Part shown: piece after piece, positions 3,661 to 53,271 of the stretch | Numbering within the stretch: the first letter of the stretch is position 1 | How the letters are laid out: every line of letters begins with the position of its first letter | Assembly: GCA_022703585.1 (NCBI GenBank) | Contig: JAKLDJ010000003.1 | Span: 78,250-142,249, forward strand | Source of the DNA: Candidatus Omnitrophota bacterium | Lineage (GTDB): Bacteria > Omnitrophota > Gorgyraeia > Zapsychrales > JAKLDJ01 | DNA length: 64,000 bases | Direction: 5' to 3' | The notes under the pieces: generated by a model | Databases searched by the model: none | The model's input: the letters and a program-made list of their open reading frames with translations, nothing else | What the model was told of the DNA's origin: nothing | Translations under genes and position numbers: made by a program

Positions 3661-3661
3661 T

Positions 3662-4955: not shown

Positions 4956-4988
4956 CCACAAACGTTCACGTATCTCATAAGGCGTTAT

Positions 4989-5987: not shown

Positions 5988-6064
5988 GAAAGAATATTGA
6001 TAATGGATAGAATCGGTTTGGGCGCTGTTGTTGGTGGTTCACAAAGAAGCAGGGGAGAAGCGGT

Positions 6065-7811: not shown

Positions 7812-7812
7812 T

Positions 7813-9942: not shown

Positions 9943-12087
9943 ATGCTTGAAACGGCGAACATTTATGTGGAATATTTGACCGTCTGGAATTGGCTTAAAG
10001 TTATTCTTCCGGCGCTGCGTCTTTACGCCCGCGAACAATCCGGGCGCCAATGCCGTTGCTATATTTTTGACAGCACGCCTGTCGCATTGTGGCTGGCCAG
10101 GCATTGGGGTCGGATAGAGGGATTTTTGGTTGAAAAAATAGACTTTCAAATAGCGGATGTCAAGGATGAGCAGGGGTTATCGGGCTTGTCTTGGGTTTGT
10201 CACAAGAATCCCGTTGAAATCCAAAGGATGATCCTCAATAATCCTGATTTTATATCCTTTACCGGCGGTCTCGACCCCCATTCCTTTGCAAAGGCATATT
10301 TGGCAAAATTACCTGTTATTTATTACAGCCTTATCGGTCCTCAGAAATACAGCGAAACAGGACACGTGGCATTCATGATTCAGATCGTGCATTGGCATCA
10401 GCGTCGGCTGGGCCATCATTCTTTGCGTGTCGATCTCTATGTTATCCCAAGGCTCTGGATGAAAGAGCTTCAAGAATACGCCAAATCCTATGGCGGGCGC
10501 TTGTGCGCGCTGGGGCCAGTGAAACTTTGGCGCTGGAAATGGGCAGAGTATAAAAGCAGGCTGAGCAATGTAAACCTTAATTTGATTAAGGCGCTTGTGC
10601 GGCACAAAATCTTTGAGTTCAGCGTCAAGCAGGGGCGGGTCGAGAACAAGTTTTATTTTAAGACTGATATTGTTCGGATGTTAACCGAAAGTTACGGGCA
10701 ATTTAATCTGGACGATCCGCAGTGCCATAGCGATGTCTTTTATGCCGATGAAAAAGCCCTGCGCCTGAAAGATATACTCCTCTATTTTAACTCAGTTACT
10801 GATCCTATTGATGAGAAGAAGTACGCGCTCCTTCAAAAACACGACCTTGCCGCTGTGGCTTTGACACCGCAATCATGCCTTGTTGACCCGGCGCTGGTTC
10901 CGGTGTTCCGTGCCGACGCAAAAGTCTCCATCGATGTCCCAAGCTATCCGGCTAAGGCGAGTCGGGAGATCAAGTCGCTGGCGGTGTCATTGGCTCACTA
11001 TAATAAGTTACGCAGCTATTGGCGTCAGTTCCTGCAGCGCTACAACATCAAGCTTTACACAAGCTGGCTTAACTGCGAGGCGAACACGATGGCCATTGCG
11101 GATGCGCTTACCGATGTCGGCGGGATCTCTTCGATCTACCAGCGTTCCTACAAGCCGGGTGTTTCTCCTCAATTAGCCGTGGGAACGGATATCATTTTTG
11201 GATTTTCCAACAGGGATTGTGAACTTCAGGCAGGGAGCGGTTCGCAGTTTCGTTATTACGTAACTGTCGGATATCTGGGGGACAATCGTTTTGATGTTTT
11301 GCGCCCCAGGGCTTCGCAGATCCGCAATCAATTATTAACGCACGGTGCTAAACACATTATCGCTTATTTCGACGAGAATACGCTGGATGATGGAAGATGG
11401 TTCCACGGGCACAAGATGGCGCAGGATAATTACCGTTTTTTGTTGGAAAAATTATTATTTAATTCTGAGCTGGGCCTTGTTTTAAAACCTAAGGTCCCCG
11501 GTACGTTACGCCGCAGATTAGGCGATATCAACAGGCTTTTGGTCGAGGCTGAAAAGACTGGGAGATGTTTCATGTTCGGGGAAGGGAGCATTTTCGGCTC
11601 TTATCCGCCTGCCGCCGCGGCCTTAGCGGCTGACATTGCGATTCATGACCAGTTGGCGTGCGGCACGGCAGGATTGGAAGCGGCTCTTGCCGGCATTCCC
11701 ACTTTGTTAATTGACCTCGAAGGGTGGTCTTTTAGCCCGTTATATGGGTTGGGAGATCATGTTGTTTTCACGGATAGAGACAGCGCTTGGCGTGCCTGTG
11801 AAGCGTATTTTAAGGATCCCTTGGCTCATCCCAGAGCGGGCAACTGGTCATCAATGATTAACGAATTTGACCCTTTTCATGATGGACGGGCGGCGCAGAG
11901 GATGAGCCGTTATTTAAAAGATCTTTTAGAGGGTTTGCGTGCGGGAGAAAAACCAACGGAGGTAATGGAAAAAGTTGCTGAACGCTATGCCCGTCAATGG
12001 GGCAAAGACAAGGTTCAACGAGGACCAAGATACGATGTTCATCTTTCTGTCGGAGAAAGTCTCAATCGTAAGGAGGTACGTCTGTGA
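9943..12087 (+). CDS. hypothetical 714-aa protein, possible GT-B-like/capsule-biosynthesis-like glycosyltransferase
   Basis: Long ORF with no hallmark motif I can name. The C-terminal segment GTAGLEAALAGIPTLLID...VVFTD resembles a GT-B C-terminal Rossmann half. Confidence 0.5.
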   Translation: MLETANIYVEYLTVWNWLKVILPALRLYAREQSGRQCRCYIFDSTPVALWLARHWGRIEGFLVEKIDFQIADVKDEQGLSGLSWVCHKNPVEIQRMILNNPDFISFTGGLDPHSFAKAYLAKLPVIYYSLIGPQKYSETGHVAFMIQIVHWHQRRLGHHSLRVDLYVIPRLWMKELQEYAKSYGGRLCALGPVKLWRWKWAEYKSRLSNVNLNLIKALVRHKIFEFSVKQGRVENKFYFKTDIVRMLTESYGQFNLDDPQCHSDVFYADEKALRLKDILLYFNSVTDPIDEKKYALLQKHDLAAVALTPQSCLVDPALVPVFRADAKVSIDVPSYPAKASREIKSLAVSLAHYNKLRSYWRQFLQRYNIKLYTSWLNCEANTMAIADALTDVGGISSIYQRSYKPGVSPQLAVGTDIIFGFSNRDCELQAGSGSQFRYYVTVGYLGDNRFDVLRPRASQIRNQLLTHGAKHIIAYFDENTLDDGRWFHGHKMAQDNYRFLLEKLLFNSELGLVLKPKVPGTLRRRLGDINRLLVEAEKTGRCFMFGEGSIFGSYPPAAAALAADIAIHDQLACGTAGLEAALAGIPTLLIDLEGWSFSPLYGLGDHVVFTDRDSAWRACEAYFKDPLAHPRAGNWSSMINEFDPFHDGRAAQRMSRYLKDLLEGLRAGEKPTEVMEKVAERYARQWGKDKVQRGPRYDVHLSVGESLNRKEVRL

Positions 12088-13127
12088 CCGATGTTCCTTT
12101 TAAGAAGTATTCCAAATCGTCAGGTTTTTATACAAAAACGCATAAGGAATTTTTTACGGAAAATGAATCCCTTTTAGCCAAGATAGAAGAACACAATCGG
12201 ATTTACCGGGAGCAGCCGGTCCGGGAGTATTGTAAATTATGCCATGAAAAGCTGCCGACTCTTAAGGATCTCGTTTCGCATGATATTCCTTACTTTTTTT
12301 GTTCCAATTGCGGGCATTTCAACGGAGCCTACGAAGATACCAAGGAATTTGTAAAAAAGATTTATCTCGAAGACACCAATTATTCGGATCACTACGTGAA
12401 TGCTGAATTTGATTCGCGAACCAAGAATATTTATGTCCCTAAAGTAGATTTTCTCGCAGAGAATCTTCCTCCGGGTATCCGGCCAAGGGTTCTTGATATA
12501 GGTTGTGGCAGCGGCAATTTTGTATACGCCTGTTTACAAAGGGATATTGAAGCGGTGGGGATAGACTTTTCGGCCAAGGCCGTTGACTTTGGAAATCAAC
12601 AAATACGGCAACGATTAAATAAATCTCCGCTGACACTGGTTTCGGAAGAGACATTCTTTCAGTCTATTGTCGGGTCGGATGCCAGTGTCTTAAGCGCTAT
12701 CGGGGTCCTTGAGCATTTGCGCGAACCGGATAAGCTTTTTGATGCGTTTGAAAAGAGCCGGATGACCTATTTGTTTTATTCTGTGCCGATGTTCTCTGCT
12801 TCGGTGATTTTTGAGAATGCCTTTCCGGCAGTATTCCCCAGACAGCTCGGAGGGGACCACACGCATTTATTTACCGAATCTTCGGTCGAATGGATGCATA
12901 AAAACAAGAATTTGTGTTCGCTTGCGGAGTGGCGATTTGGGACGGGTGTTATGGATTTGTATAGAAGCCTTTTGATAACCCTCAAGAAGAACGGTGCATC
13001 GGACAAGCTTCTTAAAATCTTTGAAGAGGGGTTTGCCCAAAAGATTGATGCCTTACAGGCTGTTCTTGATAAGAATAACTTTTGCTCGGAAATCCATTGC
13101 CTGGTAAAGAAAGAAAGGATGTCATGA
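12084..13127 (+). CDS. class I SAM-dependent methyltransferase with N-terminal zinc ribbon
   Basis: CKLCHEK...CSNCGHF gives CxxC...CxxC, and motif I is VLDIGCGSGNF. GTG start overlaps the upstream stop; RBS AAGGAGG. Confidence 0.7.
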   Translation: MTDVPFKKYSKSSGFYTKTHKEFFTENESLLAKIEEHNRIYREQPVREYCKLCHEKLPTLKDLVSHDIPYFFCSNCGHFNGAYEDTKEFVKKIYLEDTNYSDHYVNAEFDSRTKNIYVPKVDFLAENLPPGIRPRVLDIGCGSGNFVYACLQRDIEAVGIDFSAKAVDFGNQQIRQRLNKSPLTLVSEETFFQSIVGSDASVLSAIGVLEHLREPDKLFDAFEKSRMTYLFYSVPMFSASVIFENAFPAVFPRQLGGDHTHLFTESSVEWMHKNKNLCSLAEWRFGTGVMDLYRSLLITLKKNGASDKLLKIFEEGFAQKIDALQAVLDKNNFCSEIHCLVKKERMS

Positions 13128-13414
13128 ATATCTTGAGCTATTTTCATATCGATATGTGGACGCTTTGGGGTCTCGTCTCCCAGGGCCTTTTTTTCTTAAG
13201 TTTTGTTGTCCAGTGGTACGAATCGGAAAAGAGAAAGACTTCTGTTATCCCGATGGAATTTTGGTATCTGCGCATCTTAGGGGCGTTGATGACCTTTATT
13301 TATGCCGTCGCGCGTCGGGATATCGTTTTTTTGGCATCGACGGTGCTGCAGATTATTATTTATTCACGCAATATCCATTTGATCAGTCTCAAGGCTCCCG
13401 CCGGAAAGGGGTAA
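13124..13414 (+). CDS. small 2-TM membrane protein, lipid-A-disaccharide-synthase N-terminal-like domain (GT2 accessory)
   Basis: About 96 aa with two hydrophobic helices, WYESEKRK between them and a YAV.RRD motif. ATGA overlap with the upstream gene. Lies directly upstream of a polyprenyl-P GT2. Confidence 0.55.
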   Translation: MNILSYFHIDMWTLWGLVSQGLFFLSFVVQWYESEKRKTSVIPMEFWYLRILGALMTFIYAVARRDIVFLASTVLQIIIYSRNIHLISLKAPAGKG

Positions 13415-13418
13415 GGCT

Positions 13419-14354
13419 ATGACCGTGCCGTTTAATCCAATCGAAATCTCGGTTGTCGTACCTGTTTATAACGAAGAAGGAAGCGTGGTGCATCTTTACA
13501 CGGAGATCGAGGCGGTTTTGCGGGCCATGGGCCTGACGTTTGAGATTATTTTTGTTGATGACGGCTCTACCGACGGCACGGCCGCGAAACTGAAAACCTT
13601 ACGGCTTTTAAGGGTAATTCGTTTGCGCAAGAATTACGGCCAATCCTGTGCCCTGGATGCCGGTGTCAAGGCAGCGCGCGGGAAATTTATCGTGACCCTA
13701 GACGGTGACGGCCAGAATGATCCTGCGGATATCCCTCTTTTATGGCGCACGATCCAGAATGGCTATAGCGTTGTCTGCGGGTGGCGTTTTAAACGGAAAG
13801 ATTCTTTCTTAAAACGCTTTATTTCCCTGGGGGCACGGTTTTTAAGACGCCGGTTAGTGGATGACGACATCCATGATGCGGGGTGTACACTACGCATATA
13901 CAGACGGGAATGCTTTGAGGATTTGGACCTTTATGGGGAGCTGCACAGAATGATCCCGGCCCTTTTAAAATGGAGAGGGTTTAAGATCACGGAGGTTAAG
14001 GTTAATCACCGGCCGCGAATAGCTGGATGCACAAAATACGGCTGGGACCGGGTGCTCAAGGGATTTTTAGACATGCTCTATGTCTGGTTTTGGCGTAAAT
14101 ATGCCTTTAGGCCTTTGCACTTGTTCGGGGCATTCGGAATTTTCTTCATGCTGTTCGGTAGCCTTCTGCTTTTGTTTTTAACAGGTCTTAAAATATTTTT
14201 AGGATATCAGCTTTCTAATAAAATATGGCCGTTGGTGGGATTCTTTTCTGTCTCGATCGGCGTCCAATTCTTGATGATGGGATTTTTGGCTGCGAACTTG
14301 GTGGATCAGAACCGAGCCCGTAAATATTCCGTGGAATCTATGTCGGGAGAATAA
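13419..14354 (+). CDS. GT2 polyprenyl-phosphate sugar synthase (DPM1/ArnC/GtrB-like) with C-terminal TM helices
   Basis: ISVVVPVYNEEGS...FVDDGSTDGT...LDGDGQNDP fits GT2 DXD architecture. The hydrophobic C-terminal 80 aa is typical of GtrB/ArnC. Confidence 0.8.
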   Translation: MTVPFNPIEISVVVPVYNEEGSVVHLYTEIEAVLRAMGLTFEIIFVDDGSTDGTAAKLKTLRLLRVIRLRKNYGQSCALDAGVKAARGKFIVTLDGDGQNDPADIPLLWRTIQNGYSVVCGWRFKRKDSFLKRFISLGARFLRRRLVDDDIHDAGCTLRIYRRECFEDLDLYGELHRMIPALLKWRGFKITEVKVNHRPRIAGCTKYGWDRVLKGFLDMLYVWFWRKYAFRPLHLFGAFGIFFMLFGSLLLLFLTGLKIFLGYQLSNKIWPLVGFFSVSIGVQFLMMGFLAANLVDQNRARKYSVESMSGE

Positions 14355-16562: not shown

Positions 16563-18278
16563 ATGATGTCTAGAGAAGCGCAGGCGGTATTTACTGAAAA
16601 CAGAAAATATTTTGCAGGCATTATTTTGGTTTTGGCGATTTTTATTGCCGTGTGGGCCTGGGTAGTGGTGGCTACGGCACCATGGGGTGATGAGAACTTT
16701 CATCTGGCGGCAGCAGCAGGTCTTCATTATTCCGGGAAGGCCGATCTTTGGGATATTGATAAAAACAAAATTTCAGATCTCACCGATAATCAGGACTATA
16801 ATCGGGGTCAAATTATTACCCGCCCTACGGCATTTCTTATGAAGATTTCTCTTAATAACATGCTTTTATTTCATATCATTCCGCTTTTTTTCTCTCTTCT
16901 GACTCTTGGTTTCTGGGCATGGTATGCTGGTCGGCGCATGAAATTTGGGCTTGGTGCCGTGATGTTGTTATCAATATTTATTTTGGGGCAACCGATTTTT
17001 CTTGAAGAGGCGGCATATTTGAGGGCGTATTCGGCCCTGGGATTATTTATGAGTGTTGCGGTTATCGGATTATGGGAGGCACGTGAGGGTTTTATCCGGA
17101 AGCGATGGGCGGCTGTTATGTGGGGAGGGCTAGCGGTAATGATGGCTATCGTGGTCCCGCAATTAGACCATTGGCAGTCGCAGCATATTCTGGCGATTAT
17201 TTTTTCCGCTCTTTTATTGCACGATAAAGTCTGGCAACGGACTCAAAAGTTTCTTTCTAATCCCCGGAAGGTTGCCTTCGTGGCGGTGCCCCTGTTGTTA
17301 TTGGCGCCTTTCGCGGTGATTGTCATTGATCAAATGATGGTCGGGATAAAGATGGGCAGCCGTCCGATGCCTTTGTCATTTGTCACCTATTGGGATAACA
17401 TTGCCGGCCTTTTGCGTTTTATGTTGGCGTTAAATGTCTGCCTTATTGGTTTTAAATGGTTGGCTCAGGGGCTGGTTAAAAGATCTTTTTGGTCGTGGCT
17501 TTATGTTTCCGGTATCTTGTCCGGGATTTTCCTGGCTTTGTTTCTGCCTCTAAGCCACATCTTTTATTCCCGCTTCTTTTATATCCATGTCCTTTTGGGG
17601 AGTATCGGTTTTTTGGGGCTCTTTTTAGAAAAAAATCCACAACCCGGGCTCAGGAGAGCGATGATAGCCGGTTATCTGGTAATCGGTATCTGTTTTTCGG
17701 GAATCAATTTTTATTATGATCGCGACAATAGACAAGACGGCGTGGTATGGCTCAAGGAAAATTTGAAGAAAAACGACATTCTTTTCGCATTCTCTCCTCA
17801 ATATATGTTTAATAACGGCGAAGAACTTATAGGGCGTACTTATTTTATCGGTAGATCGGCGGACCTTGAGAAAGTTGAGGAAATTATCCGGATTGCCCAA
17901 AACCCGGGAACCGGCCGCATTTTCTTTTTTTGCGCCGATTTCTACCAATTCAAGAATCGGCTTTATCATTGGACGACGGGCGGGGACAGGATTTTTAAAT
18001 ACGGCGACGAGGTAAATTATATTTATTATGCTATCCCCTCAGAGAGCGTATTAAGAAACCCAAGGGGGTTTGACATCAGGATTTACGATGCTGCTGTTTT
18101 AGCGGAGGGCTTAAAGACGCTTCGGGAAGAGGGTTTTGCCGAGCGGATTCCTCCGGTCAGTATGCATAAGAAGTTAATCAAGGGAGCCTTTGGCGCGTTC
18201 AATTTGCCGACAAAAAGGGAAGATATTCTCGAGATCCCTTTGGTCAAATGGTTCTTTAGTTTTTTTTCCCGGCAATAA
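16563..18278 (+). CDS. GT-C fold membrane glycosyltransferase (ArnT/PMT-like), putative
   Basis: More than 10 predicted TM helices. The first loop contains the WGDENFH acidic motif typical of ArnT/PMT polyprenyl-P-sugar-dependent transferases. I chose the internal ATG at 16563, preceded by RBS GGGAAAGAGGAA. Confidence 0.55.
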   Translation: MMSREAQAVFTENRKYFAGIILVLAIFIAVWAWVVVATAPWGDENFHLAAAAGLHYSGKADLWDIDKNKISDLTDNQDYNRGQIITRPTAFLMKISLNNMLLFHIIPLFFSLLTLGFWAWYAGRRMKFGLGAVMLLSIFILGQPIFLEEAAYLRAYSALGLFMSVAVIGLWEAREGFIRKRWAAVMWGGLAVMMAIVVPQLDHWQSQHILAIIFSALLLHDKVWQRTQKFLSNPRKVAFVAVPLLLLAPFAVIVIDQMMVGIKMGSRPMPLSFVTYWDNIAGLLRFMLALNVCLIGFKWLAQGLVKRSFWSWLYVSGILSGIFLALFLPLSHIFYSRFFYIHVLLGSIGFLGLFLEKNPQPGLRRAMIAGYLVIGICFSGINFYYDRDNRQDGVVWLKENLKKNDILFAFSPQYMFNNGEELIGRTYFIGRSADLEKVEEIIRIAQNPGTGRIFFFCADFYQFKNRLYHWTTGGDRIFKYGDEVNYIYYAIPSESVLRNPRGFDIRIYDAAVLAEGLKTLREEGFAERIPPVSMHKKLIKGAFGAFNLPTKREDILEIPLVKWFFSFFSRQ

Positions 18279-26631: not shown

Positions 26632-26638
26632 GGGCGAT

Positions 26639-32392: not shown

Positions 32393-33802
32393 ATGATGAT
32401 GAGCAGGCCGCGTTTTTTTAATAATCTTATTATTTATTGCTTCGCTGCTTCTTTTGCCTATTGGGTGTATCTCTTTTTTGCTTCGCATATGGCGATTTCA
32501 TGCGATGCGATAGGCTATGAAAAACTGGGAAGGCTTTTATATCAAGAAGGGTGGGGCGCTTATTTTATTACCGGCCCCAATCGCGAACCCGTTTATCCGT
32601 GGCTGGTTTCGGTGGCGATGCGGATAGCTGACGGGACGGGTATCTCGTACATGTATGTTCAGAAATCTTTTCAAATTCTTATTCTGGCGATTAGCCAATT
32701 CCTGCTGTATCGCTTTCTGGTTTTGCTCAATATCCGTCGAGGAATCATCGTGGGTGCTATTTTATACTTCGGATTCTCTCCGTCTCTTGTTAACGCGGGT
32801 TTTAGTCTTTATTCGGAGATAGCGGCGTATCCGTTTATTTTGGGGATTATCGGCTCAACCTATTTTTTGTGGAAAAGAACACAGGAAAAGAAATTGTGGA
32901 GCGTTTTGGGATGGGCCATTTGTTTGGAATTTTGTTTTATCGGAGGAACTTTTGTCAAAGGTGTTCTGGAGATTGGATTCCCTTTATATTTTCTATTTTT
33001 AATCATTGTATTTATTCGTTGGCGAAAGAAAGAAAGGGCATCCTGGCAATACGCGCTACCGCTTGTTTTAACGGCAGTAATTTTCTATGGAATTTTAGGG
33101 GGATATAAGGGGCTTAATTATCGGCATAATCAATGTTTTACGCTAACCGACCGGGGAGCGTGGGCGCTATACGGCAATACGATTCGCCGGATGGAGCCTT
33201 TAACTTTCAAAAGTTTTCTGTCTAATTTGGCATCGGTTCCCGGAGAAGGGGCCTGCCGGGCATTTTTTTCCGAGGAAGAATGTTATTTCTGGTCTGCCCA
33301 GAAATCCGATGGCATCGGCATGCCGCGCCTTGGCGAACTTGTTGCCCAGGGGATTCCCGTTAACGAAATCAATCATGTTTTAGTCCGGGATTCGGCAAAG
33401 GCGGCTTTAAGAAATCCGTTTCAATATGCATTACTATCGGCCACTGAGGCGGTTAAGATGCTTTTTTGGGAGTCGACGCGGATCGGGTTTGTGGATTACC
33501 CTGCTTGGCTCGAACGTTTATTTACTCTTGGTATTGTTAAAAATGGGATTCGGTTTGTCATTTCAGGATTAACGATTTTAGCCTTTTTTTATCTTTGGGC
33601 GCGCAAAGAAGGCGGGATACTTTTGGCGATCAAGTGGTTTTTAACGATTTATATTATTCTACATTCTTTCTTTTTGATCGTTACCCGGTGGGCCTTACCG
33701 GTTGCGCCGCTCTACATCATTATCATCGCTTATTTTCTTGATCAAATATCCGGAAGGCTTTATGCCGTCAAGGAAAAGGGTGGAAAACAGGAGAATCTTT
33801 GA
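32393..33802 (+). CDS. hypothetical polytopic membrane protein (possible polymerase/GT-C-like)
   Basis: 469 aa with at least 10 hydrophobic helices. No motif I can name. RBS AGGAA. Confidence 0.5.
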   Translation: MMMSRPRFFNNLIIYCFAASFAYWVYLFFASHMAISCDAIGYEKLGRLLYQEGWGAYFITGPNREPVYPWLVSVAMRIADGTGISYMYVQKSFQILILAISQFLLYRFLVLLNIRRGIIVGAILYFGFSPSLVNAGFSLYSEIAAYPFILGIIGSTYFLWKRTQEKKLWSVLGWAICLEFCFIGGTFVKGVLEIGFPLYFLFLIIVFIRWRKKERASWQYALPLVLTAVIFYGILGGYKGLNYRHNQCFTLTDRGAWALYGNTIRRMEPLTFKSFLSNLASVPGEGACRAFFSEEECYFWSAQKSDGIGMPRLGELVAQGIPVNEINHVLVRDSAKAALRNPFQYALLSATEAVKMLFWESTRIGFVDYPAWLERLFTLGIVKNGIRFVISGLTILAFFYLWARKEGGILLAIKWFLTIYIILHSFFLIVTRWALPVAPLYIIIIAYFLDQISGRLYAVKEKGGKQENL

Positions 33803-34866
33803 TTAAGGAAGACAGAAACATAATAATCGATGTCTTAAAAGGCATTGCTATTATTTTAGTCGTTTGCGGCCATGTTATTCAACGCACCATGGTTTTAAAT
33901 GGTGCGGACTTTTTCTTAAATCCTGCCTTTAAAATTATCTACACGTTTCATATGCCGTTATTCTTCTTTCTTAGCGGATATTTGATGGCATGGACGCTGG
34001 GCAGAAGAAGTTTCTTGGATGCGTTCAAATCAAGATGCAAGACCTTGCTTATTCCCTTTGTTGTGTGGGGGATGCTGGGTGTTTTTACAATTTATTTTCT
34101 TAATCTGATCGACGGCAAGAAAGTATCGATCGTTCATCTCCCCCAGGGTCTTTTCAATGATTTATTATTGATTCCTGCGGTATGGTTTTTATTTGCGCTA
34201 TTTATATCGAGCTGTTTGTTGATCTATTCGGTTCGATTGGCGAAACGTCTTGGCGTTGCCGGATTCTTTTTGGTCTATTTTCTTGTTGTTTTGCTTCCGT
34301 TTAATGAATATGGTGCGCTCTATTATATTAAATGGTTCTACTTGTTTTATCTGGCCGGGTATTTTTTTAATAAAAGCCGTTTCACAATAACGAATAAAAT
34401 TACCGGCGCGACTATTTTGGCTGCTTCCCTGATTGCGTTTATCGCGCTTGTGCCGTATTGGAATAAGAATGACTATATCTACATCAACAAAATGGAATTA
34501 ATGTCTTCGGACTACCTTTATGAATTTATGAGAATAGCATACCGGTACGCCCTTGGATTTCTAGGCATCATTATTGTTTCCTATGCGGGAATCTATTTAG
34601 CGAAAACAAAACTACGATTTCCCTTGGCCTATCTCGGTATTTATTCGTTGGATATTTATTTGTTTCAAAGGTATATTGTCGAAGGGTTTTACCCCAGAAT
34701 AGCAAGCAATGCGGGCATTAACTTTGATTTTAATTCTCCGATTTTTCTTTGCGGCTTTGTGCCGTTGGTTGCGATATTCTTTATTGGGGTGTGCCTGTTG
34801 GTTTCAAGGTTACTGATCAGGCGAATCCCGTTATTGGGCAAGCTGCTTTTGGGTAATCGGACCTAA
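33799..34866 (+). CDS. acyltransferase family 3 (OafA/OatA-like membrane O-acyltransferase)
   Basis: N-terminus IIIDVLKGIAIILVVCGHV fits the acyltransferase-3 motif. About 10 TM helices. TTG start with RBS CAGGAGAA. Confidence 0.75.
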   Translation: MIKEDRNIIIDVLKGIAIILVVCGHVIQRTMVLNGADFFLNPAFKIIYTFHMPLFFFLSGYLMAWTLGRRSFLDAFKSRCKTLLIPFVVWGMLGVFTIYFLNLIDGKKVSIVHLPQGLFNDLLLIPAVWFLFALFISSCLLIYSVRLAKRLGVAGFFLVYFLVVLLPFNEYGALYYIKWFYLFYLAGYFFNKSRFTITNKITGATILAASLIAFIALVPYWNKNDYIYINKMELMSSDYLYEFMRIAYRYALGFLGIIIVSYAGIYLAKTKLRFPLAYLGIYSLDIYLFQRYIVEGFYPRIASNAGINFDFNSPIFLCGFVPLVAIFFIGVCLLVSRLLIRRIPLLGKLLLGNRT

Positions 34867-34882: not shown

Positions 34883-36280
34883 ATGTTTGACTGGGAGAAA
34901 CATTATGATGATTTGGCCCCAAAGCGCGATGAATTTCGCCGGCGCTACTGGTATTACTATCATCAGCTGGAGTCATACTACCGTTTCTTTATTCCTGAGG
35001 GAAGAAGAGTCCTTGAGGTGGGTTGTTCAACCGGGGCGCTTTTAAGCGCGCTTAAGCCTTCTTACGGCGTTGGAGTTGATATCAGCGGTGGCTCTATCGA
35101 TATCGCCCGGCGCAATTTTCCCCAAGCTACCTTTCATCATGGCGGCATTGAGACCGTTCCTGATGGCGAGGTTTTTGATTATATTGTTCTTTCCGGGCTT
35201 TTGGGAGAGCTTGATGATGTTCAAAGTTTCTTGTGCAAGCTTCGCAGAGTCTGCACCCGGGACACGCGCATTGTCATTGAATACCACAGCTTGTTTTGGC
35301 AGTATATTCTTAGAACGGCCAAACGGCTTGCATTCAAGAAACCGGAGGGGATGCGAAACTGGCTTACGTATCAGGATATTGAAAACTTTTTGAGGCTTGC
35401 GGGTTTTGAGCCTGTGAAATCAGACCGGCACACTCTTTTGCCTCTATACATTCCTTTGATTAGCACCTTGATCAACCGTTTTATTGCGCGGCTGCCTTTT
35501 ATCAATGCGTTAACCTTTAACCATTTCATTGTTGCCCGTCCGGTTTTTGGCGCTCGTGAGGAGCTCTCGGTTACGATTCTTGTACCCTGCCGAAACGAGA
35601 AAGGCAACATCGAACAAGCGGTTACCCGGACTCCTGTCTTTGGGCAACATCAGGAATTTATCTTTGTTGAGGGCTGGTCCAAGGACGGGACTTATGAGGA
35701 AGTCGAGCGGATTATAAAAGCGTATCCGAAGAAAGATATAAAACTCTATAAGCAGCCCGGCAAGGGTAAGGGGGATGCCGTGCATTTTGGCTTTGAGAAA
35801 GCCGGCGGAGATGTCTTGATGATCTTGGACGCTGACCTTACAGTCTCGCCGGAAGATATGCCAAAATTTTATCAGGCCATTCAACAGGATAAGGGAGAGT
35901 TTATTAACGGCTGTCGCCTTGTGTATCCTATGGAAGACGATGCCATGCGTTTTCTAAATCATGTCGCGAATAAATTCTTTGGGATATTTTTTTCTTGGCT
36001 TTTAGGGCAACGGTATAAAGATACTTTGTGCGGTACGAAAGTGATCCTGCGGAATCATTATCGAGAATTGGTCGCCAACCGTTCTTATTTCGGTGATTTC
36101 GACCCCTTCGGAGATTTTGATCTTATTTTTGGCGCCAACAAGCTCGGCTTAAAAATGCTCGAAGTGCCCATCCGTTATAAGAGCCGTACCTACGGGGAAA
36201 CGCAAATCCAAAGATTCCGTCACGGGTTACTTTTATTGAAGATGTGCGGTTTCGCAATGAGGAAGGTAAAATTCATATGA
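34883..36280 (+). CDS. bifunctional class I SAM methyltransferase / GT2 glycosyltransferase fusion
   Basis: The N-terminal half has motif I VLEVGCSTGAL. The C-terminal half is GT2-like (ILVPCRNEKGNIE...ILDADL) and DPM1-like. Confidence 0.8.
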   Translation: MFDWEKHYDDLAPKRDEFRRRYWYYYHQLESYYRFFIPEGRRVLEVGCSTGALLSALKPSYGVGVDISGGSIDIARRNFPQATFHHGGIETVPDGEVFDYIVLSGLLGELDDVQSFLCKLRRVCTRDTRIVIEYHSLFWQYILRTAKRLAFKKPEGMRNWLTYQDIENFLRLAGFEPVKSDRHTLLPLYIPLISTLINRFIARLPFINALTFNHFIVARPVFGAREELSVTILVPCRNEKGNIEQAVTRTPVFGQHQEFIFVEGWSKDGTYEEVERIIKAYPKKDIKLYKQPGKGKGDAVHFGFEKAGGDVLMILDADLTVSPEDMPKFYQAIQQDKGEFINGCRLVYPMEDDAMRFLNHVANKFFGIFFSWLLGQRYKDTLCGTKVILRNHYRELVANRSYFGDFDPFGDFDLIFGANKLGLKMLEVPIRYKSRTYGETQIQRFRHGLLLLKMCGFAMRKVKFI

Positions 36281-37407
36281 CACCATCCCGGAAATTTGTG
36301 ATTTTTATTTTCGTCGTAGGTATTTTTGCCGCAGGGTTATGCCAGGGCTTTACCATTGCCTTAAAAAAGCCGCTTTGGAATGATGAAATTTTCAGCCAGG
36401 TGTCGAGCGTGGAAGGCAAAAGCTGGCCGGTGATTTGGACAGGCCGTATCGGCGAAGGTAATAATTCACCGCTTTTTTATTCTATCCAGAAGGCCATTTG
36501 TAAGGCCTTTAATTACCGGTCGGAGGATCTATGGCATAAGGACGATATTCGCGCCCGTTTTATCTTAAGAATCGCTCCGGTTTTTTGTATGTCTCTGGGA
36601 ATGGCATTGATCGCCTGGTTTCTTTGTGTTTATTATTCTTTGCTGGGCGGTTTGATCGGGTTTATTGTTTCGATTTCGTCTTACATGGTCTGGTATTATT
36701 GGGCGGAAGCCAGGCCGTATGCGCTGATATTCCTGGCTGCGACTGTCCAGGCGCTTGCTTTGTTTTATTATTGCCGTTTTGAGAAGAAGTTAAGTTTCTG
36801 GGGTATGATGGCAGCCAATTTGTTTGTCGCTTTTGCTTTTTCGCTGAGCGTTATTCAGATTGTAGCTTCGGGAGTCATGTTGTGGGTTAAGGGATATCGC
36901 CGGATATGGCCTTTGTTGTTGAGCGTCGGACTACCGCTGGGGGTAGCGTTTGGTTATCATATAGCGGCACCTCATTATTCGTTCTTCTTTGGGCCGTACG
37001 GGAAACCGTATCAGCTTATTTTTGCAAATATTCCGTCCGGACGATTAGCGGCGTTCTTTATTTTTCCGGCTTTGGTTTTAGGGTGGGACTGGTACATAAA
37101 AAAAGAGCGGAAGATTGCTCTTTGGCCTTTCTTCGCCTGGGCATGGTTGACATTTTTTGGGTATATTGCCTTTATCGGATATCTAAAATATTTAACATTA
37201 TTTCAGGAGTCACCGCAATTCGAGGTATCCAATCGTTACTTTATGGCCTTGACGCCGTTAGGCATCATCGCCGTTTCTGTTGGGATTCTTGAGCTGGTTA
37301 AGCGTCCGCGGGCACTATGGGCGAGGGCCATGGTGTGGGCTGTTGCCCTGGCGATCATTCTTCCTCGCCTAGCGAAGGCATTCCATTGGATGATGAACGG
37401 CCTGTAG
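36277..37407 (+). CDS. GT-C/PMT_2-like membrane glycosyltransferase, putative
   Basis: 376 aa with at least 9 TM helices. The first loop LWNDEIFS resembles the ArnT/PMT DE motif. ATGA overlap with the upstream gene; RBS AGGAAGG. Confidence 0.5.
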   Translation: MTPSRKFVIFIFVVGIFAAGLCQGFTIALKKPLWNDEIFSQVSSVEGKSWPVIWTGRIGEGNNSPLFYSIQKAICKAFNYRSEDLWHKDDIRARFILRIAPVFCMSLGMALIAWFLCVYYSLLGGLIGFIVSISSYMVWYYWAEARPYALIFLAATVQALALFYYCRFEKKLSFWGMMAANLFVAFAFSLSVIQIVASGVMLWVKGYRRIWPLLLSVGLPLGVAFGYHIAAPHYSFFFGPYGKPYQLIFANIPSGRLAAFFIFPALVLGWDWYIKKERKIALWPFFAWAWLTFFGYIAFIGYLKYLTLFQESPQFEVSNRYFMALTPLGIIAVSVGILELVKRPRALWARAMVWAVALAIILPRLAKAFHWMMNGL

Positions 37408-37490: not shown

Positions 37491-39170
37491 TTGGGATGCT
37501 TATTTTATTGCCGTTACCTTATTGTATCTGCTATGGAGGGCAAGAGTATTTTTCGAACGATGCGTTTACCCTTAAGCCATCTGCCGACGGTCCTTTTAAT
37601 TGTCGGGTATCCAATCTACTGGCTGGAGCTTTATGCCTTTCGGGCCGGCCGAGGGAATACCACTCCTTTAGCCTGGATCATCTTTTGTATTTTTGCGCTC
37701 ATTGTTCTTTATCGAAATTATACTCGCCTAGTAGCCGGTGCGCGTGATTTTTGTGTACGGTTTTCTCAAGAGCCCTTATCGCTCAGGCTGCTACTTGTTG
37801 TCGCGGGGATCGGGGCCGGGGTAATTTCTTTGTGCGCGTTTTACGCCGCATTGTTACCGCCGCATTTGGTGCAAGAATCCGATCTTTTGAATTATCATCT
37901 GACTCTGCCCCGGCAACATCTCATCATGCATTCTTTTAAGCATATTCCCTGGTCGACGGCAGATTTATATCTTCTGCCGATTGATTTTTCCCTGGCGCCG
38001 TACTGGTTGGCAACGAACTTACCGAATAAATTCCCTCAGTTCTTGTTCTTTGCCGGCATTATCCCGGTTTCTTTTAATCTGGTTAGGCGTTTCAGCGGGA
38101 ATAATTTCTTGAGCCTATGCCTGATAGTTCTGGCTGTTTTTGGGTCTCACAGCGTCGGCATACAAGCCGGAACGGCCATGCTGGATTTGGCTTTGTGTTA
38201 TCTGTTTCTGGCGGCATTGGATAGCTTTCTCGGTGGTGCGATTCTAATAAGTGCTCTGGAGTTTGTATTCTTATTCTGGTCAAAATCTTTTATCCCATTG
38301 CAACTGGGATTGACCTTTATGGCGCTGTTTTGCCTAATGTTCGTACTAAAAAAATGGTTTATGTATAAAGTGGACTGGAATCTTGGCAGGGAAATAGAGG
38401 CGGGTACGCTCAATAAAAAGAAGCTTCAACAATTCGCAGTGTTGTTTTTGATATGCAGTATCTTTATCGCCGGGCCGTTCATCGCAAAATCCATGTATTA
38501 TGCAGGGACTCCGCTTTTTCCTTTTAAGGTGGGGATTCTAAATCCGGGAAATGGCTTAGACAGAAATTCCCCTCAGTGGCAATCATTGTTGGAAAAGTCA
38601 AAACAATGCGTTACCACTCGCGACGATTATGGGGCCGGGCGGTCGTTGAAGGAATTTATCGGCCATTTTTGGCTTATCGCCGTTCCCGAAGAGGGCGTCA
38701 ATAACCGCTATGACTATCCGGTGGGGCTCATGTACTTGCTTTTTGTCGGGCCTTTTCTTTATGTGTTTATCAGTTCTCTGCGGAAGAAAAAAATCGGCCT
38801 GCTGCCTTTTTTTGTAGTTGTTTACTGGCTGGTATGGTGGGTGGGTTCACAGCAGACCAGGTTTTTGTTTATCCCTATTTTGCTGATGTTCATCTCAGTT
38901 ATCGCGACAAATAAATTTCAATCCCGCATTCTCATCATAGCGATGCTTATAGCTCTATTTTTGACGGGATTGTCGGTTTTTAGGGCGCATCGCGCTGATT
39001 TTGGCTGTGCGTCTTGGGAGGTTCTACGCCCGAAAGATAGAGAACTTATTGCGATGTCGAAAACAGTTAACCGGAATCAGCCGGTTAAATTAAATTATCC
39101 CGACGTTGCTTTTGCGGACTTTGAAGTAGACGTGCAGGATACGAATTCAGTCTTTGTTTTGCAACATTAA
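37491..39170 (+). CDS. hypothetical polytopic membrane protein (start uncertain)
   Basis: 559 aa with at least 12 hydrophobic helices. TTG at 37491, or ATG at 37533/37560; none has a convincing RBS. Confidence 0.5.
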   Translation: MGCLFYCRYLIVSAMEGKSIFRTMRLPLSHLPTVLLIVGYPIYWLELYAFRAGRGNTTPLAWIIFCIFALIVLYRNYTRLVAGARDFCVRFSQEPLSLRLLLVVAGIGAGVISLCAFYAALLPPHLVQESDLLNYHLTLPRQHLIMHSFKHIPWSTADLYLLPIDFSLAPYWLATNLPNKFPQFLFFAGIIPVSFNLVRRFSGNNFLSLCLIVLAVFGSHSVGIQAGTAMLDLALCYLFLAALDSFLGGAILISALEFVFLFWSKSFIPLQLGLTFMALFCLMFVLKKWFMYKVDWNLGREIEAGTLNKKKLQQFAVLFLICSIFIAGPFIAKSMYYAGTPLFPFKVGILNPGNGLDRNSPQWQSLLEKSKQCVTTRDDYGAGRSLKEFIGHFWLIAVPEEGVNNRYDYPVGLMYLLFVGPFLYVFISSLRKKKIGLLPFFVVVYWLVWWVGSQQTRFLFIPILLMFISVIATNKFQSRILIIAMLIALFLTGLSVFRAHRADFGCASWEVLRPKDRELIAMSKTVNRNQPVKLNYPDVAFADFEVDVQDTNSVFVLQH

Positions 39171-39183: not shown

Positions 39184-40875
39184 ATGTTTACCGAAGTAAG
39201 ATGCCATTTGTGCGGCAGCGACTCATACGATGTGGTTTACAATAACCTCAGGGCGCAAGGGGATTTTGACCAAAAAGATTTTTATAAGATAACGGATCAT
39301 GCGGCGGAAGCTTCTCTTAGGATCGTATGCTGCCGCCGATGCGGGTTTACTTTTCTTAACCCCCTGCCGGATCAAACGACTATTGTGGATAATTATGTAT
39401 CAATGGTCGACGATAAATATCTGCAGGAAGAAAAAGGGCGCCGGGCGTCGGCCCGGTCCGTCTTAAACTATCTTAATAGTATTAAAAAAGATAAAGGGGT
39501 TCTTCTGGATATCGGCTGTGCCGCCGGATTTCTCTTGGATGAGGCGCGTAAAGACGGGTGGGAGGTTTATGGCGTGGAACTTTCTCGCTGGGCTGTCGGG
39601 TATGCCCGGAAGACACTGTGTCTTGGAAATATAGTCCAGGGTACGCTCAAGGATGCCAATTTCTCCCGGAATTTCTTTGATGCGGTGGTAATGACGGACG
39701 TGATTGAGCATCTTATCCAGCCAAAAACGATGCTTGAAGAAATACGCCCCTTACTAAAACCCAACGGCGTGATGTGTTGTGCGACACCCGATGTCGATAG
39801 TTTGGTCAGCCGTCTGTTGGGGGCAAAGTGGTGGGGGATCAAATGTTCCCATCTTCACTATTTTAACAAATTCACTCTCGATGAACTCTTTAGGGCAACT
39901 GGTTTTACGGTCGCCAAGATACGATCGCACGCCAGGACGTTTTCTCTGGGATATTGGGTAGAAAACTTTGCAAGCTACAAACCGTCATTGCGTTTTATTG
40001 ACAGTTTTCTTAAAAAATATCCGAAACTAGCGGCGTTCTCTGTTTCGCTTGATCTCGGCGACCAGATAGAGGTCTTCGCGCGCAAGAGCCGGCAGATAAA
40101 ATACCTTCACGAGCTGGAGGCGGGGCTTGAAGAAGAAAGGCCGAAAGGAAGAAAGAAAATCATTGCTATTTTTCCAGCGTACAATGCGGCTAAAACCCTG
40201 GAGAGGACATTTAAGGATATCCCTAAGGATTGTTTTGATGAGATAATCTTGATTGACGATGCCAGCAAAGATGATACGGTCGAGATTGCCCGCCGGTTGA
40301 ATCTTAAAGTTTTTGTTCACGAAGAAAGGAAAGGTTACGGTGCCACCCAGAAAACAGGCTACAACAAAGCCCTGGAAATGGGTGCTGATATTGTCGTTAT
40401 GGTCCACCCGAATTATCAGTATGACCCTAAGGTTATTCCGGCCTTGATCGAGCCGATCTTAAAAGGCAGGGCGGAAGCGGTATTCGGTTCCCGCATGATG
40501 AAAGGCGGCGCCCTGGAAGGCGGAATGCCGCTATGGAAATACAATGCCAGTATCCTATTAACCGCTTTGCAAAATATCGTTTTGGGAATTTATTTGACGG
40601 AGTATCACACCGGCTTTCGGGCCTATAGCCGCAAGTATTTAACCGGCGTAAATTTTGAGGCCAATTCCAACGGCCTTATTTTTGATACCGAGATCATTGT
40701 CCAGGGGGCTTTGAAGTTTATGAAATTTGAAGAGGTTCCTATCCGGACAAGATATTTTGATGAGGCTCCATCCATAGGGCTTTGGCCACTGATTGTCTAT
40801 GGCATCAATATCCTCAAGACCCTCTTAAAATTCATGCTGCACAAGCGAATCTGGGATTTTAAACAATTTGAATAA
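39184..40875 (+). CDS. bifunctional Zn-ribbon class I methyltransferase / GT2 (DPM1-like) fusion
   Basis: N-terminus CHLCGS...CRRCGF plus motif I LLDIGCAAGF. The C-terminal half KIIAIFPAYNAAKTLE...ILIDDASKDDT...HTGFRAYSR is GT2. It is a paralog of 53272..54042. Confidence 0.8.
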   Translation: MFTEVRCHLCGSDSYDVVYNNLRAQGDFDQKDFYKITDHAAEASLRIVCCRRCGFTFLNPLPDQTTIVDNYVSMVDDKYLQEEKGRRASARSVLNYLNSIKKDKGVLLDIGCAAGFLLDEARKDGWEVYGVELSRWAVGYARKTLCLGNIVQGTLKDANFSRNFFDAVVMTDVIEHLIQPKTMLEEIRPLLKPNGVMCCATPDVDSLVSRLLGAKWWGIKCSHLHYFNKFTLDELFRATGFTVAKIRSHARTFSLGYWVENFASYKPSLRFIDSFLKKYPKLAAFSVSLDLGDQIEVFARKSRQIKYLHELEAGLEEERPKGRKKIIAIFPAYNAAKTLERTFKDIPKDCFDEIILIDDASKDDTVEIARRLNLKVFVHEERKGYGATQKTGYNKALEMGADIVVMVHPNYQYDPKVIPALIEPILKGRAEAVFGSRMMKGGALEGGMPLWKYNASILLTALQNIVLGIYLTEYHTGFRAYSRKYLTGVNFEANSNGLIFDTEIIVQGALKFMKFEEVPIRTRYFDEAPSIGLWPLIVYGINILKTLLKFMLHKRIWDFKQFE

Positions 40876-47108: not shown

Positions 47109-48545
47109 GTGATCCCTTTTATGAGACCAAAAAATAAAAACTCCATTATCCGCTTTCTTTACATCGTATTAGATATATATATCACCTACGTCGCTATCTT
47201 CATTGCCTGTTTATTCAGGCAGGAAATACTGACGTTTCCGGTTTCTTTCCACTACCTGCTTGTGGATCAAGACAACCCTTTTCGCATTCTTTTCTTATCC
47301 TGGATTTTCCTGACCGTATTCTTTAATAATCTTCACGGCCTCTACCAGACCAGAAGAGAACTATTTGAAGGAGTGGAAATATGGCTGATCATAAAGTCGA
47401 TTTGCCTATCATCCTTAGGGATGATCACGCTGCAGTACATTCTTAAGATCCCCGGTTTTCCCAGAAGTATTTTTATTATCAGTATTATCTTGATGATTCT
47501 TTCGCTTTCTCTCTGGCGGGCGATTAAACGGGTATTTGTCGAATATCTCGTTTCACACGGCTACAACAATTTTAATGCCCTTATCATCGGTGCCGGAAGG
47601 ATCGGCACGGCCCTGTTTAAGGAGATTGAAAAAAGGCCGGGCTTAGGGATTCGGGTTGTGGGTTTTTTGGATGACCTCAAGGTCGAAGCGGGGGATAGCA
47701 AGCATGCGAAAGTTTTGGGTAAGATTTCTGATTTTGCCGAGATTGCCCGAAAGGAATTTGTTAATAAGATTTTTATTACTGTCCATCATGACAGCAATGC
47801 TTTTTTGAACTTGCTGGAACAAGCCCGGGAAATGAATATTGCGGTCAGGGTGGTTCCCCAGGGGTTTGATTTAACGTCGGGAGAATTTTTTAAATACAAC
47901 ATTGGCCTGATTCCGATTCTTGAATACGCGGATGTTCAGAACTTGCGCAAGCAGGCGGGGAAAAGGATCTTCGATCTTATTATTAGCTTGGCTGCTTTTA
48001 TTGTGCTCTTACCGGTATTTTTTGTTATCGGCGTTATCATTAAGTTTGACAGCGCCGGCCCGGTTTTTTATATGTCCAAAAGGTACGGAAAAGGCGGAAA
48101 GATATTTAATATGTACAAATTCCGCAGTATGACGCGCAATGCGGACAAATCGCTGGATCAGATACGCCACCAAAATGAAGTCGACGGGCCTATTTTTAAA
48201 ATCAAGAAGGATCCGCGGGTGACCAAGTTCGGCGCTATCTTGAGGAAATATAGCTTAGATGAGCTTCCGCAGATTATTAATGTTTTACAAGGGGAAATGA
48301 GTTTAGTCGGCCCTCGGCCTTTGCCCATTGATCAAATCGAAAAAGAGGACTTAAAACAGCTTAAACGCCTTGAAGTGCGCCCGGGGATGACGGGCCTTTG
48401 GCAAATCAGAGGCAGAAGCGATGTCGCATTCTCGCGGCTGGTCAAGTGGGATATCTGGTATATCAATAATTGGTCATTCTGGCTGGACCTGAATATTCTT
48501 TTCCAAACCATTCCTGTTGTTCTAAAGGGTAAAGGCGCTTATTAA
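47109..48545 (+). CDS. polyprenyl-phosphate hexose-1-phosphate transferase (WbaP/CpsE-like initiating sugar transferase)
   Basis: 4 N-terminal TM helices and a central Rossmann-like region. The C-terminus RIFDLIISLAAFIVLLPVF...KFRSM...DELPQIINVLQGEMSLVGPRP is the bacterial sugar transferase domain. Confidence 0.85.
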   Translation: MIPFMRPKNKNSIIRFLYIVLDIYITYVAIFIACLFRQEILTFPVSFHYLLVDQDNPFRILFLSWIFLTVFFNNLHGLYQTRRELFEGVEIWLIIKSICLSSLGMITLQYILKIPGFPRSIFIISIILMILSLSLWRAIKRVFVEYLVSHGYNNFNALIIGAGRIGTALFKEIEKRPGLGIRVVGFLDDLKVEAGDSKHAKVLGKISDFAEIARKEFVNKIFITVHHDSNAFLNLLEQAREMNIAVRVVPQGFDLTSGEFFKYNIGLIPILEYADVQNLRKQAGKRIFDLIISLAAFIVLLPVFFVIGVIIKFDSAGPVFYMSKRYGKGGKIFNMYKFRSMTRNADKSLDQIRHQNEVDGPIFKIKKDPRVTKFGAILRKYSLDELPQIINVLQGEMSLVGPRPLPIDQIEKEDLKQLKRLEVRPGMTGLWQIRGRSDVAFSRLVKWDIWYINNWSFWLDLNILFQTIPVVLKGKGAY

Positions 48546-53269: not shown

Positions 53270-53271
53270 TT

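Follow-up and report, generated by a model that had tools for sequence, protein, structure and literature searches.

Three-component systems that glycosylate in the periplasm are established for the decoration of O antigens and other glycans after polymerisation, and new families of GT-C glycosyltransferases are still being founded from them–for example, GT136 (PMC11127046). In the GT-C superfamily, a DxD or DE motif occurs shortly after the first transmembrane (TM) helix and an arginine motif in the second luminal loop, and a conserved arginine or lysine has been described in a loop of the C-terminal four-helix cluster (PMC6801728). Here we analyse a stretch of 64,000 nucleotides from a Candidatus Omnitrophota bacterium (positions 78,250 to 142,249 of contig JAKLDJ010000003.1, assembly GCA_022703585.1; "the window"), in which a preliminary description, made from the sequence alone, had noticed an array of polytopic membrane proteins resembling GT-C enzymes. 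We call these proteins A to F. On the strength of predicted structures we firmly assign A and B to the GT-C-fold inner-membrane glycosyltransferases. With a probability of about 60%, we think that the window encodes several periplasmic glycosylation modules of the Gtr/Arn type, whose GT-C enzymes decorate the WbaP/Wzy-type polymer of the gene island in which they lie.

Comparison with described systems

In Gtr systems (GtrA/GtrB/Gtr*, and the GT136 pentofuranose system; PMC11127046) a GtrB/DPM1-family synthase is encoded beside a GT-C enzyme, in or near a surface-polysaccharide locus, and the window has the same arrangement, with four such synthase genes. It differs from Gtr systems in that none of the window genes scanned matches a GtrA, SMR or MATE flippase, the flippase position being held by a LAB_N-family protein in the A module only; in that two of the synthases are fused to an N-terminal methyltransferase; and in that several modules are stacked in one island.

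ArnT (GT83; structures 5ezm and 5f15, from Cupriavidus metallidurans) has 13 TM helices. Like protein A, it consists of a polytopic N-terminal domain and a C-terminal periplasmic domain, but A has 11 predicted TM helices and is 11–12% identical to ArnT in the structural alignment (TM-score about 0.45). Neither A nor its putative synthase matches the ArnT or ArnC equivalog models, no genes for 4-amino-4-deoxy-L-arabinose were seen, and A sits in a polysaccharide/nonulosonic-acid island. With PMT_2/PMT (GT39) and TMEM260/TMTC the window proteins share the fold class, the DE after the first TM helix and the periplasmic or luminal orientation, but they fall below those family models and have no MIR domain, and neither A nor B contains a TPR. 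In structure, B comes closest to ALG9, ALG12, ALG3 and STT3/PglB, GT-C enzymes of the eukaryotic endoplasmic reticulum and of bacteria (for ALG9, query TM-score (TMq) 0.55, root mean square deviation 6.5–7.2 Å). It resembles the ALG enzymes in being a compact GT-C protein confined to the membrane, without a soluble domain, and no similarity in sequence can be detected; unlike PglB and STT3, it has no C-terminal periplasmic domain, the part of those proteins that carries the WWDYG motif. PpgS, the mycobacterial polyprenyl-phospho-N-acetylgalactosamine synthase, has no membrane helices and works with a separate GT-C enzyme, Rv3779. It is among the best NCBIfam matches of two of the window's synthases (at 39184 and 53269), which likewise have no membrane helices and would act together with a separate GT-C enzyme, but the tests made show no relationship of their partners here, D and a Wzy_C protein, to Rv3779.

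A and B belong to separate families with conserved periplasmic motifs

All six proteins are polytopic by hydropathy, with about 9–13 hydrophobic segments each. BLASTP detects no similarity among them, so the "array" of the preliminary description stands as a set of several polytopic proteins but comprises distinct families, not tandem paralogues. Scans of A–F against Pfam and NCBIfam gave no significant match to a membrane-protein family, and none of the six matches PMT_2 (PF13231) or PMT (PF02366) even at E-values up to 1. F matches TPR models only, D has a lone weak match to LIC_10190_fam (E = 5e-4; 18.8 bits, cut-off 100), and A has no match among NCBIfam models, including ArnT. The features of A and B are as follows.

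16563..18278, plus strand: protein A, predicted GT-C-fold membrane glycosyltransferase (571 aa; 11 TM helices and a C-terminal periplasmic alpha/beta domain, about residues 386–571, both predicted)
16683..16703, plus strand: WGDENFH, acidic motif of the first periplasmic loop of A and proposed catalytic site (residues 41–47)
17016..17033, plus strand: YLRAYS, periplasmic loop 2 of A
17385..17399, plus strand: TYWDN, periplasmic start of TM helix 8 of A
17565..17582, plus strand: YSRFFY, periplasmic loop of the C-terminal four-helix cluster of A
36277..37407, plus strand: protein B, predicted minimal GT-C-fold glycosyltransferase (376 aa; 11 TM helices and no periplasmic domain, as predicted)
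36373..36396, plus strand: LWNDEIFS, first-loop acidic motif of B (residues 33–40)

The start of A, ATGATG, is preceded by a ribosome-binding site, GGGAAAGAGGAA, and its sequence is identical to entries titled 'MAG TPA: hypothetical protein PL155_05345 [Candidatus Omnitrophota bacterium]'. A comes from a rare family: an exhaustive HMMER search found 37 representatives among 1.84 billion, and a word-indexed search for homologs returned only A itself. For the representative of A's cluster (P0001, 570 aa), an exact-sequence look-up turned up no recorded contig that encodes it. The B family numbers 125 members, and all those with a source name come from Omnitrophota/Omnitrophica.

The acidic motifs WGDENFH and LWNDEIFS, which the preliminary description had picked out, are present in A and B and conserved in the respective families. 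In an alignment of 23 A-family sequences that are 21–34% identical to A, D43 and E44 are at least 90% conserved, R154-x-Y156 of YLRAYS and D278/N279 of TYWDN are invariant, and R337 of YSRFFY is at least 90% conserved; other conserved positions are R81, R104, W171, W204, R285 and N291. Among 62 B-family sequences, D36 and E37 are invariant, as are P65, Q71, R98, R146-P-Y148, Y227 and Y321, and R320 is at least 90% conserved. In one sequence taken alone, a loop of some 65 residues may well contain a DE pair, and we regard the motifs as functional because they are conserved across divergent members of each family.

We derived the topology of both proteins from the helices of AlphaFold2 (AF2) models and from loop charges. 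For each, 11 TM helices are predicted, the N-terminus being cytoplasmic, the C-terminus outside and the acidic loop periplasmic, with WGDENFH lying just past the first TM helix on the periplasmic side. In both proteins short loops rich in lysine and arginine fall on the cytoplasmic side and the polar residues conserved in the family on the periplasmic side. The predicted cytoplasmic loops of this kind in A are known by sequence (RRMK, RKR, a QRTQK...PRK stretch, VKRS and LRR), and its conserved polar motifs are all predicted to be periplasmic: the DE after TM helix 1, R154xY156 between helices 3 and 4, D202/W204, YWDN at the start of helix 8, and SRFFY between helices 9 and 10. In both proteins the first loop forms juxtamembrane helices (residues 44–57 and 83–93 of A, 35–46 and 65–77 of B). 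This pattern of motifs fits the published one for GT-C enzymes (PMC6801728). Conserved periplasmic arginines are found in both (R154 and R337 in A, R146 and R320 in B) and may bind phosphate; by analogy with known GT-C enzymes, R337 of A would contact the phosphate of the donor. We also considered whether YWDN, which resembles WWDYG, might mark A as an oligosaccharyltransferase, but it lies at the boundary of a TM helix and not in the periplasmic domain. An oligosaccharyltransferase role for B was rejected too, since B has no periplasmic domain and is paired with a monosaccharide-type synthase, which argues against it.

The AF2 models, made from the family alignments, are confident: the predicted local distance difference test (pLDDT) is 89.6 for A and 94.7 for B, and the predicted TM-score (pTM) 0.89 and 0.94. 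In a Foldseek search of the Protein Data Bank (PDB), the top match of A is ArnT (5ezm; E = 3e-5, TM-score 0.44–0.46, aligned over the whole protein), followed by ALG9, DPY19, STT3, AftA, AftD, PglB, Pmt4, ALG6 and AftB. Every PDB match of A with a probability of at least 0.75 is a GT-C enzyme. The top 40 matches of B are all GT-C enzymes too, with probabilities of 0.97–1.00; they include STT3, ALG9, ALG12, Pmt4 (TMq 0.57), AftA, Emb, AglB, ArnT, ALG3, PglB, DPY19 and AftB. The argument rests on hit lists that are exclusive to GT-C enzymes, not on close superposition. With their 11 TM helices (GT-C enzymes have about 7–13), an acidic motif after the first and three-dimensional similarity to solved GT-C enzymes, A and B thus bear out the ArnT/PMT-type GT-C class that the preliminary description had proposed for them.

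That description had also named the families in which such proteins might be found instead. Polytopic proteins in a polysaccharide locus that has no recognised Wzx flippase, and that no sequence model assigns to a family, might be Wzy-type polymerases, O-antigen ligases, flippases or transporters. Fold prediction placed A and B among GT-C enzymes instead: transporters appear in the fold searches with probabilities of at most 0.08 and TM-scores of at most 0.13, and no WaaL or RodA/FtsW-type protein is among the matches listed for either. The Wzy_C model (PF04932) matches none of A–F, in contrast to strong matches for the proteins encoded at 48556 and 51881 and a weak one at 26624, and periplasmic acidic and arginine motifs are what GT-C catalysis would call for. 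For A and B we regard a polymerase, ligase or transporter role as effectively excluded by the models; for the set as a whole it is very improbable, and what likelihood it keeps attaches mainly to C.

Profile comparisons connect the families to each other and to known GT-C families. The A and B profiles align over about their first 210 residues with a probability of 95% (hhalign, E = 3e-8), DE falling on DE and the invariant RxY of A on RPY of B; the two are distantly related. The most divergent member of the A family, P0151 (E = 5e-16 to A), scores above the gathering threshold of PMT_2 (30.8 against 26.1 bits, residues 77–234), and the weak matches of B-family members go to GT-C families only (TMEM260-like in 8 of 62 members, PMT_2 in 2 of 62, and Glyco_transf_22). 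Since the window proteins themselves reach no PMT or PMT_2 sequence model, "PMT-like" is valid at the level of fold and clan only.

Several members of the B family have further features. Three of them (P0050, P0108 and P0109, about 580–610 aa) carry a C-terminal TPR tail, an architecture like that of the eukaryotic TMTC O-mannosyltransferases, and at one locus (L015, 10001–12327) two B paralogues stand in tandem in the same genome.

Four lipid-sugar synthases and their probable transferase partners

The preliminary description had mentioned Dpm1-like synthases, and we found four of them, all of glycosyltransferase family 2 (GT2), encoded at 13419, 34883, 39184 and 53269. Their best matches among solved structures and NCBIfam models are ArnC, GtrB, DPMS, AglJ or PpgS. 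All score under the curated equivalog cut-offs, so their sugars cannot be named. For three of the four, neighbours are conserved in other genomes, where the synthases are paired with A, B and D: the dedicated pairing of transferase and synthase is kept across Omnitrophota contigs in the orders GT2–B, D–GT2 and GT2...A, with one exception for B described below. This adjacency suggests that the GT-C candidates use polyprenyl-(di)phosphate-linked donors.

Upstream of A lie four genes that recur at other A-family loci, nine of which we retrieved with a closer alignment of 8 sequences; they come from Omnitrophota metagenome-assembled genomes (MAGs), MAGs labelled 'Planctomycetales' and one Armatimonadetes MAG.

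9943..12087, plus strand: 714-aa protein, the neighbour most tightly conserved with the A family, with no obvious membrane segments
13082..13414, plus strand: small membrane protein of the LAB_N family (PF07578, E = 5e-23), directly upstream of the ArnC/GtrB-like GT2 gene
13419..14354, plus strand: ArnC/GtrB-type polyprenyl-phosphate sugar synthase with two C-terminal TM helices
14456..15205, plus strand: S-adenosylmethionine (SAM) methyltransferase

The GT2 encoded at 13419 probably makes the donor for A. It matches the sequences of ArnC (1e-35), GtrB (4e-28) and DPMS (2e-19) in the PDB, the match to ArnC being full length and including both C-terminal membrane helices, and an ArnC-like GT2 gene lies within 5 kb upstream of the A homolog at four loci (L005, L008, L009 and L012). 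LAB_N homologs occur at four A-family loci (L008, 4376–4657; L009, 5769–6041; L010, 177–440; L011, 5218–5466), in L008 and L009 directly before the GT2 gene, and the LAB_N gene occupies the slot that a GtrA flippase holds in Gtr systems. This position makes the LAB_N protein a candidate flippase of the lipid-linked sugar; a literature search on LAB_N/PF07578 found nothing relevant. Homologs of the methyltransferase (48–50% identity) stand directly upstream of the A homolog in L006, L007 and L008.

The 714-aa protein matches nothing in Pfam, NCBIfam or the PDB sequences. Its homolog lies immediately 3' of the A homolog at all six loci that have downstream sequence (L005, 11626–13701; L006, 4204–6309; L008, 11625–13733; L009, 11694–13799; L011, 11583–13754; L012, 8226–10340), whereas within the window the gene sits 4.5 kb upstream of A. 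We compared it with a 605-aa protein encoded at 21663 and found that the two are not paralogues. Nonulosonic-acid genes are frequent beside A homologs.

An Arn-like module made up of the LAB_N protein, the GT2 and A might instead modify lipid A or the core of lipopolysaccharide. In structure A comes closest to ArnT, its GT2 matches ArnC best, A has a C-terminal periplasmic domain as ArnT does, and the LAB_N family takes its name from 'Lipid A Biosynthesis N-terminal domain'. We nevertheless consider this improbable: the GT2 has its best NCBIfam matches to ArnC and PgfS, both below the cut-offs (148 bits, where the ArnC equivalog cut-off is 529), A is not picked up by any ArnT model and has the low identity to ArnT given above, no ArnA/B/D-type gene was seen among the window genes scanned, and A's conserved neighbours are the methyltransferase, the 714-aa protein and nonulosonic-acid genes.

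The B module begins with an acyltransferase gene, which precedes the GT2–B pair in the window, in L014, in L015 and at the P0012 locus.

33799..34866, plus strand: membrane acyltransferase of the Acyl_transf_3 family, opening the conserved B module
34883..36280, plus strand: methyltransferase–GT2 (DPM1-type) fusion

The GT2 of this fusion matches DPMS (1e-14) and ArnC (2e-7) among PDB sequences and AglJ in NCBIfam, and probably supplies B with its donor. In the window, in L001 and in L014, the GT2 gene shares its last 4 nt, at the stop codon, with the start of the B gene. In L015 a GT2 gene without the methyltransferase domain directly precedes the tandem B paralogues, and at the P0012 locus a separate methyltransferase gene stands between the GT2 gene and the B homolog.

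Both fused synthases of the window (34883–36280 and 39184–40875) have an N-terminal class I SAM-methyltransferase domain, and such fusions recur in L001, L014 and L018. At other loci the methyltransferase is encoded by a separate neighbouring gene, including a GT2–methyltransferase–GtrA operon in Pararhizobium.

Proteins C, D, E and F

37491..39170, plus strand: protein D, polytopic membrane protein, whose real start is probably slightly downstream of the first TTG
39184..40875, plus strand: methyltransferase–GT2 (DPM1-type) fusion
43512..45590, minus strand: protein E, polytopic (692 aa), heading a minus-strand operon
32393..33802, plus strand: protein C, polytopic membrane protein (469 aa)
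62090..64000, plus strand: protein F, a polytopic domain with a TPR tail, cut by the end of the window and lying outside the island, after the opp genes

For these four, the preliminary description was right that they are polytopic and match no family model; GT-C membership has indirect support for D, E and F, and as yet none for C. From sequence comparison and gene order we consider D, E and F probable GT-C enzymes.

A DPM1-like GT2 gene lies directly downstream of the D homolog at all four other loci that have sequence there, and also at the P0012 locus. In the window this position is held by the second fusion, which matches DPMS (6e-13) among PDB sequences and AglJ and PpgS in NCBIfam and is the probable donor synthase for D. 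Its score against PpgS, like that of the synthase at 53269, is 60–66 bits, against an equivalog cut-off of 370. Searches of D-family and C-family homologs against Pfam and NCBIfam gave nothing useful. The D and E profiles show a weak, collinear match (hhalign, 25%, E = 8e-4) that pairs PPHLxQExDxLNYH of D with YPxFDVDSLxxY of E, and GTPLFP with TGSPxFP.

The E family has 19 members, both of those with a source name being Omnitrophota, and two of the 19 match PMT_2 weakly. E also aligns with the A family (hhalign, 66%, E = 6e-5), Y-D-N of the E family falling on YWDN, where A has its invariant D278/N279, and MRYYR on SRFFY. In one other genome (L025) a small DPM1-like GT2 gene abuts the E homolog. 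E belongs to the sole minus-strand block of the window (40894–45590), with an MBOAT acyltransferase and a 356-aa protein without a family match; the MBOAT neighbour is absent from three other E-family loci.

F is 32% identical (BLASTP E = 4e-22) to a 490-aa hypothetical protein from a plasmid of Pararhizobium qamdonense (NZ_CP119568.1), and the two have a motif in common after the first TM helix, which reads KDLDLWLHLKMGE in F and RDPDNWWQVKVG in its homolog. On the plasmid (L021, 225914–229569) the F homolog, which has no Pfam match, is the last gene of an operon in the order GT2–SAM-methyltransferase–GtrA–F homolog, the classic layout of a three-component system. F is thus probably a GT-C enzyme of the Gtr type, and its homologs look like an unannotated Gtr-type GT-C family that is also present in Proteobacteria.

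We considered C as a clear relative of A but keep it as a candidate only. The arginines of the A family are not kept in C, and the probability of its profile match fell when a homolog was added, as detailed below. A tblastn search of plasmid sequences with C and D gave no match.

Proposed mechanism and acceptor

The setting of these genes is a locus for a WbaP/Wzy-type polymer, as the preliminary description had proposed.

47109..48545, plus strand: WbaP-type initiating phosphoglycosyltransferase (Bac_transf, E = 7e-69, and CoA_binding_3)
48556..49866, plus strand: Wzy_C (O-antigen ligase/polymerase-like) protein (PF04932, E = 1e-26)
51881..53269, plus strand: second Wzy_C protein, a paralogue of the first with 31% identity (PF04932, E = 8e-25)

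We propose that, in each module, the adjacent ArnC/GtrB/DPM1-type GT2 would charge polyprenyl phosphate with one sugar, possibly methylated or otherwise modified, at the cytoplasmic face of the membrane. The lipid-linked sugar would then be flipped across the membrane, in the A module perhaps by the LAB_N protein, and the GT-C enzyme would use the Asp-Glu pair of its first loop in transferring the sugar to a periplasmic acceptor. That acceptor would most likely be the polysaccharide of the same island, decorated with side branches or a cap as in Gtr seroconversion. The polymer is the most economical acceptor because the modules are embedded in, and vary with, polysaccharide and nonulosonic-acid genes. 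We agree with the preliminary description that the acceptor cannot be told from sequence.

The same enzymes might O-glycosylate proteins of the envelope or S-layer, in the manner of PMT, TMTC, TMEM260 or the streptococcal PgfS system. The A family is bridged to PMT_2 by P0151, TMEM260-like models are weakly matched by the 8 B-family members mentioned above, F and three B-family members have TPR tails as TMTC does, and the GT2 at 13419 matches PgfS besides ArnC. However, each of the matches to PMT and TMEM260 is weak or indirect, protein-binding domains such as TPR or MIR are absent from A and B, no gene for an acceptor protein or S-layer was seen in the window, and the genes are embedded in, and co-vary with, those for polysaccharide and nonulosonic acid. 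We therefore judge protein glycosylation to be rather unlikely. Of the suggestion of protein O-mannosylation or ArnC/ArnT-type transfer in the preliminary description, the likeness at the level of fold and clan was upheld, whereas nothing favours protein or an S-layer over the polymer.

Several observations weigh against decoration of the polymer by GT-C modules. By sequence, neither the profiles of A, B and E nor single sequences matched anything among all PDB sequences, and the GT-C models of Pfam and NCBIfam pick up none of the window's proteins. The global TM-scores to solved GT-C structures are moderate (0.44–0.46 for A, up to 0.57 for B), and the fold models cover A and B only. C matched the N-terminal half of the A profile with a probability of 85% as a single sequence (hhalign, CDAIGYE on WsDE), which dropped to 42% with one homolog added. 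Gene order, from which donor and acceptor are deduced, is not constant: in L003 the B homolog is not beside a GT2 gene but has a GT4 gene before it and, after it, a gene for a 621-aa protein that passes PMT_2, and the neighbourhood of E varies, with a GtrB-like GT2 gene 3.6 kb away in L023 and none in L024. Finally, there is no GtrA_DPMS_TM match, nor any SMR or MATE flippase, among the window genes scanned, little unassigned intergenic space is left, and in the B and D modules the same genes include no flippase candidate.

More tentatively, at least three independent modules might found new glycosyltransferase families (A, B, D or E), with LAB_N flipping the sugar of the A module and the fused synthases delivering methylated sugars; we find this combination possible but doubtful. 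If LAB_N were a flippase, a widespread domain would gain a function.

The mechanism itself is already well known, but the A and B families have no Pfam or NCBIfam model. GT-C enzymes are difficult to identify by sequence. Standard family models miss all of these proteins, and the annotation of Omnitrophota therefore probably under-reports periplasmic glycosylation; within the paper library searched, none names both Omnitrophota and GT-C. The window holds up to six candidate GT-C enzymes and four lipid-sugar synthases, most of them in one island, which suggests unusual decoration of the surface glycan in a phylum whose cells are very small and possibly dependent on hosts. The organisms are uncultured, but with confident models, defined motifs and named synthase partners the A and B families can be tested by heterologous reconstitution.

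The surface-glycan island and its flank

Most of the 64-kb window is a single surface-glycan island of about 54 kb, with nearly all genes on the plus strand. Besides the phosphoglycosyltransferase it encodes WecG, GT2 and GT4 transferases, and it contains genes for dTDP-sugars and GDP-fucose and acyltransferases of the Acyl_transf_3 and MBOAT types. Its other features include the following.

709–2568: ATP-binding cassette (ABC) transporter resembling MsbA/HepA/PglK, an island gene
2599–9938, plus strand: nonulosonic-acid gene set, with NeuB, GNAT, a CMP-type cytidylyltransferase, a methyltransferase and a HisH/HisF-like amidotransferase pair
15206–16540, 20150–21640, 23513–24448 and 18312–20117, plus strand: two B12-binding radical SAM proteins, one radical SAM/SPASM protein and one NodU/CmcH-type carbamoyltransferase, flanking A
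26624–28621, plus strand: 665-aa membrane protein with a weak C-terminal Wzy_C match and a soluble insert of about 270 residues (about 260–530)
53269..54042, plus strand: fourth GT2 synthase, of the DPM1/PpgS type (PpgS and AglJ in NCBIfam), abutting the Wzy_C gene upstream of it

The nonulosonic-acid set also includes two PP-loop proteins without a Pfam match, which resemble N-acetyl-sugar amidotransferases. Homologs of several genes of this set accompany the A family at other loci.

The radical SAM enzymes and the carbamoyltransferase near A suggest unusual C-methylated or carbamoylated sugars; the proximity of these genes to A is not kept at other loci. Homologs of the 665-aa membrane protein occur in L001, L003, L011 and L016. 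The second Wzy_C gene (51881–53269) abuts or overlaps the gene of the fourth synthase (53269–54042), an unusual pairing with a lipid-monophosphate sugar synthase.

The island is closed by pgk-tpiA-secG, followed by an oligopeptide ABC transporter (opp), at 54168–62050 of the window. In a related genome (L003, 17210–21122) the same pgk-tpiA-secG-opp flank stands behind a different set of glycan genes. A shared flank behind differing gene contents suggests that the island varies while its place in the chromosome is fixed.

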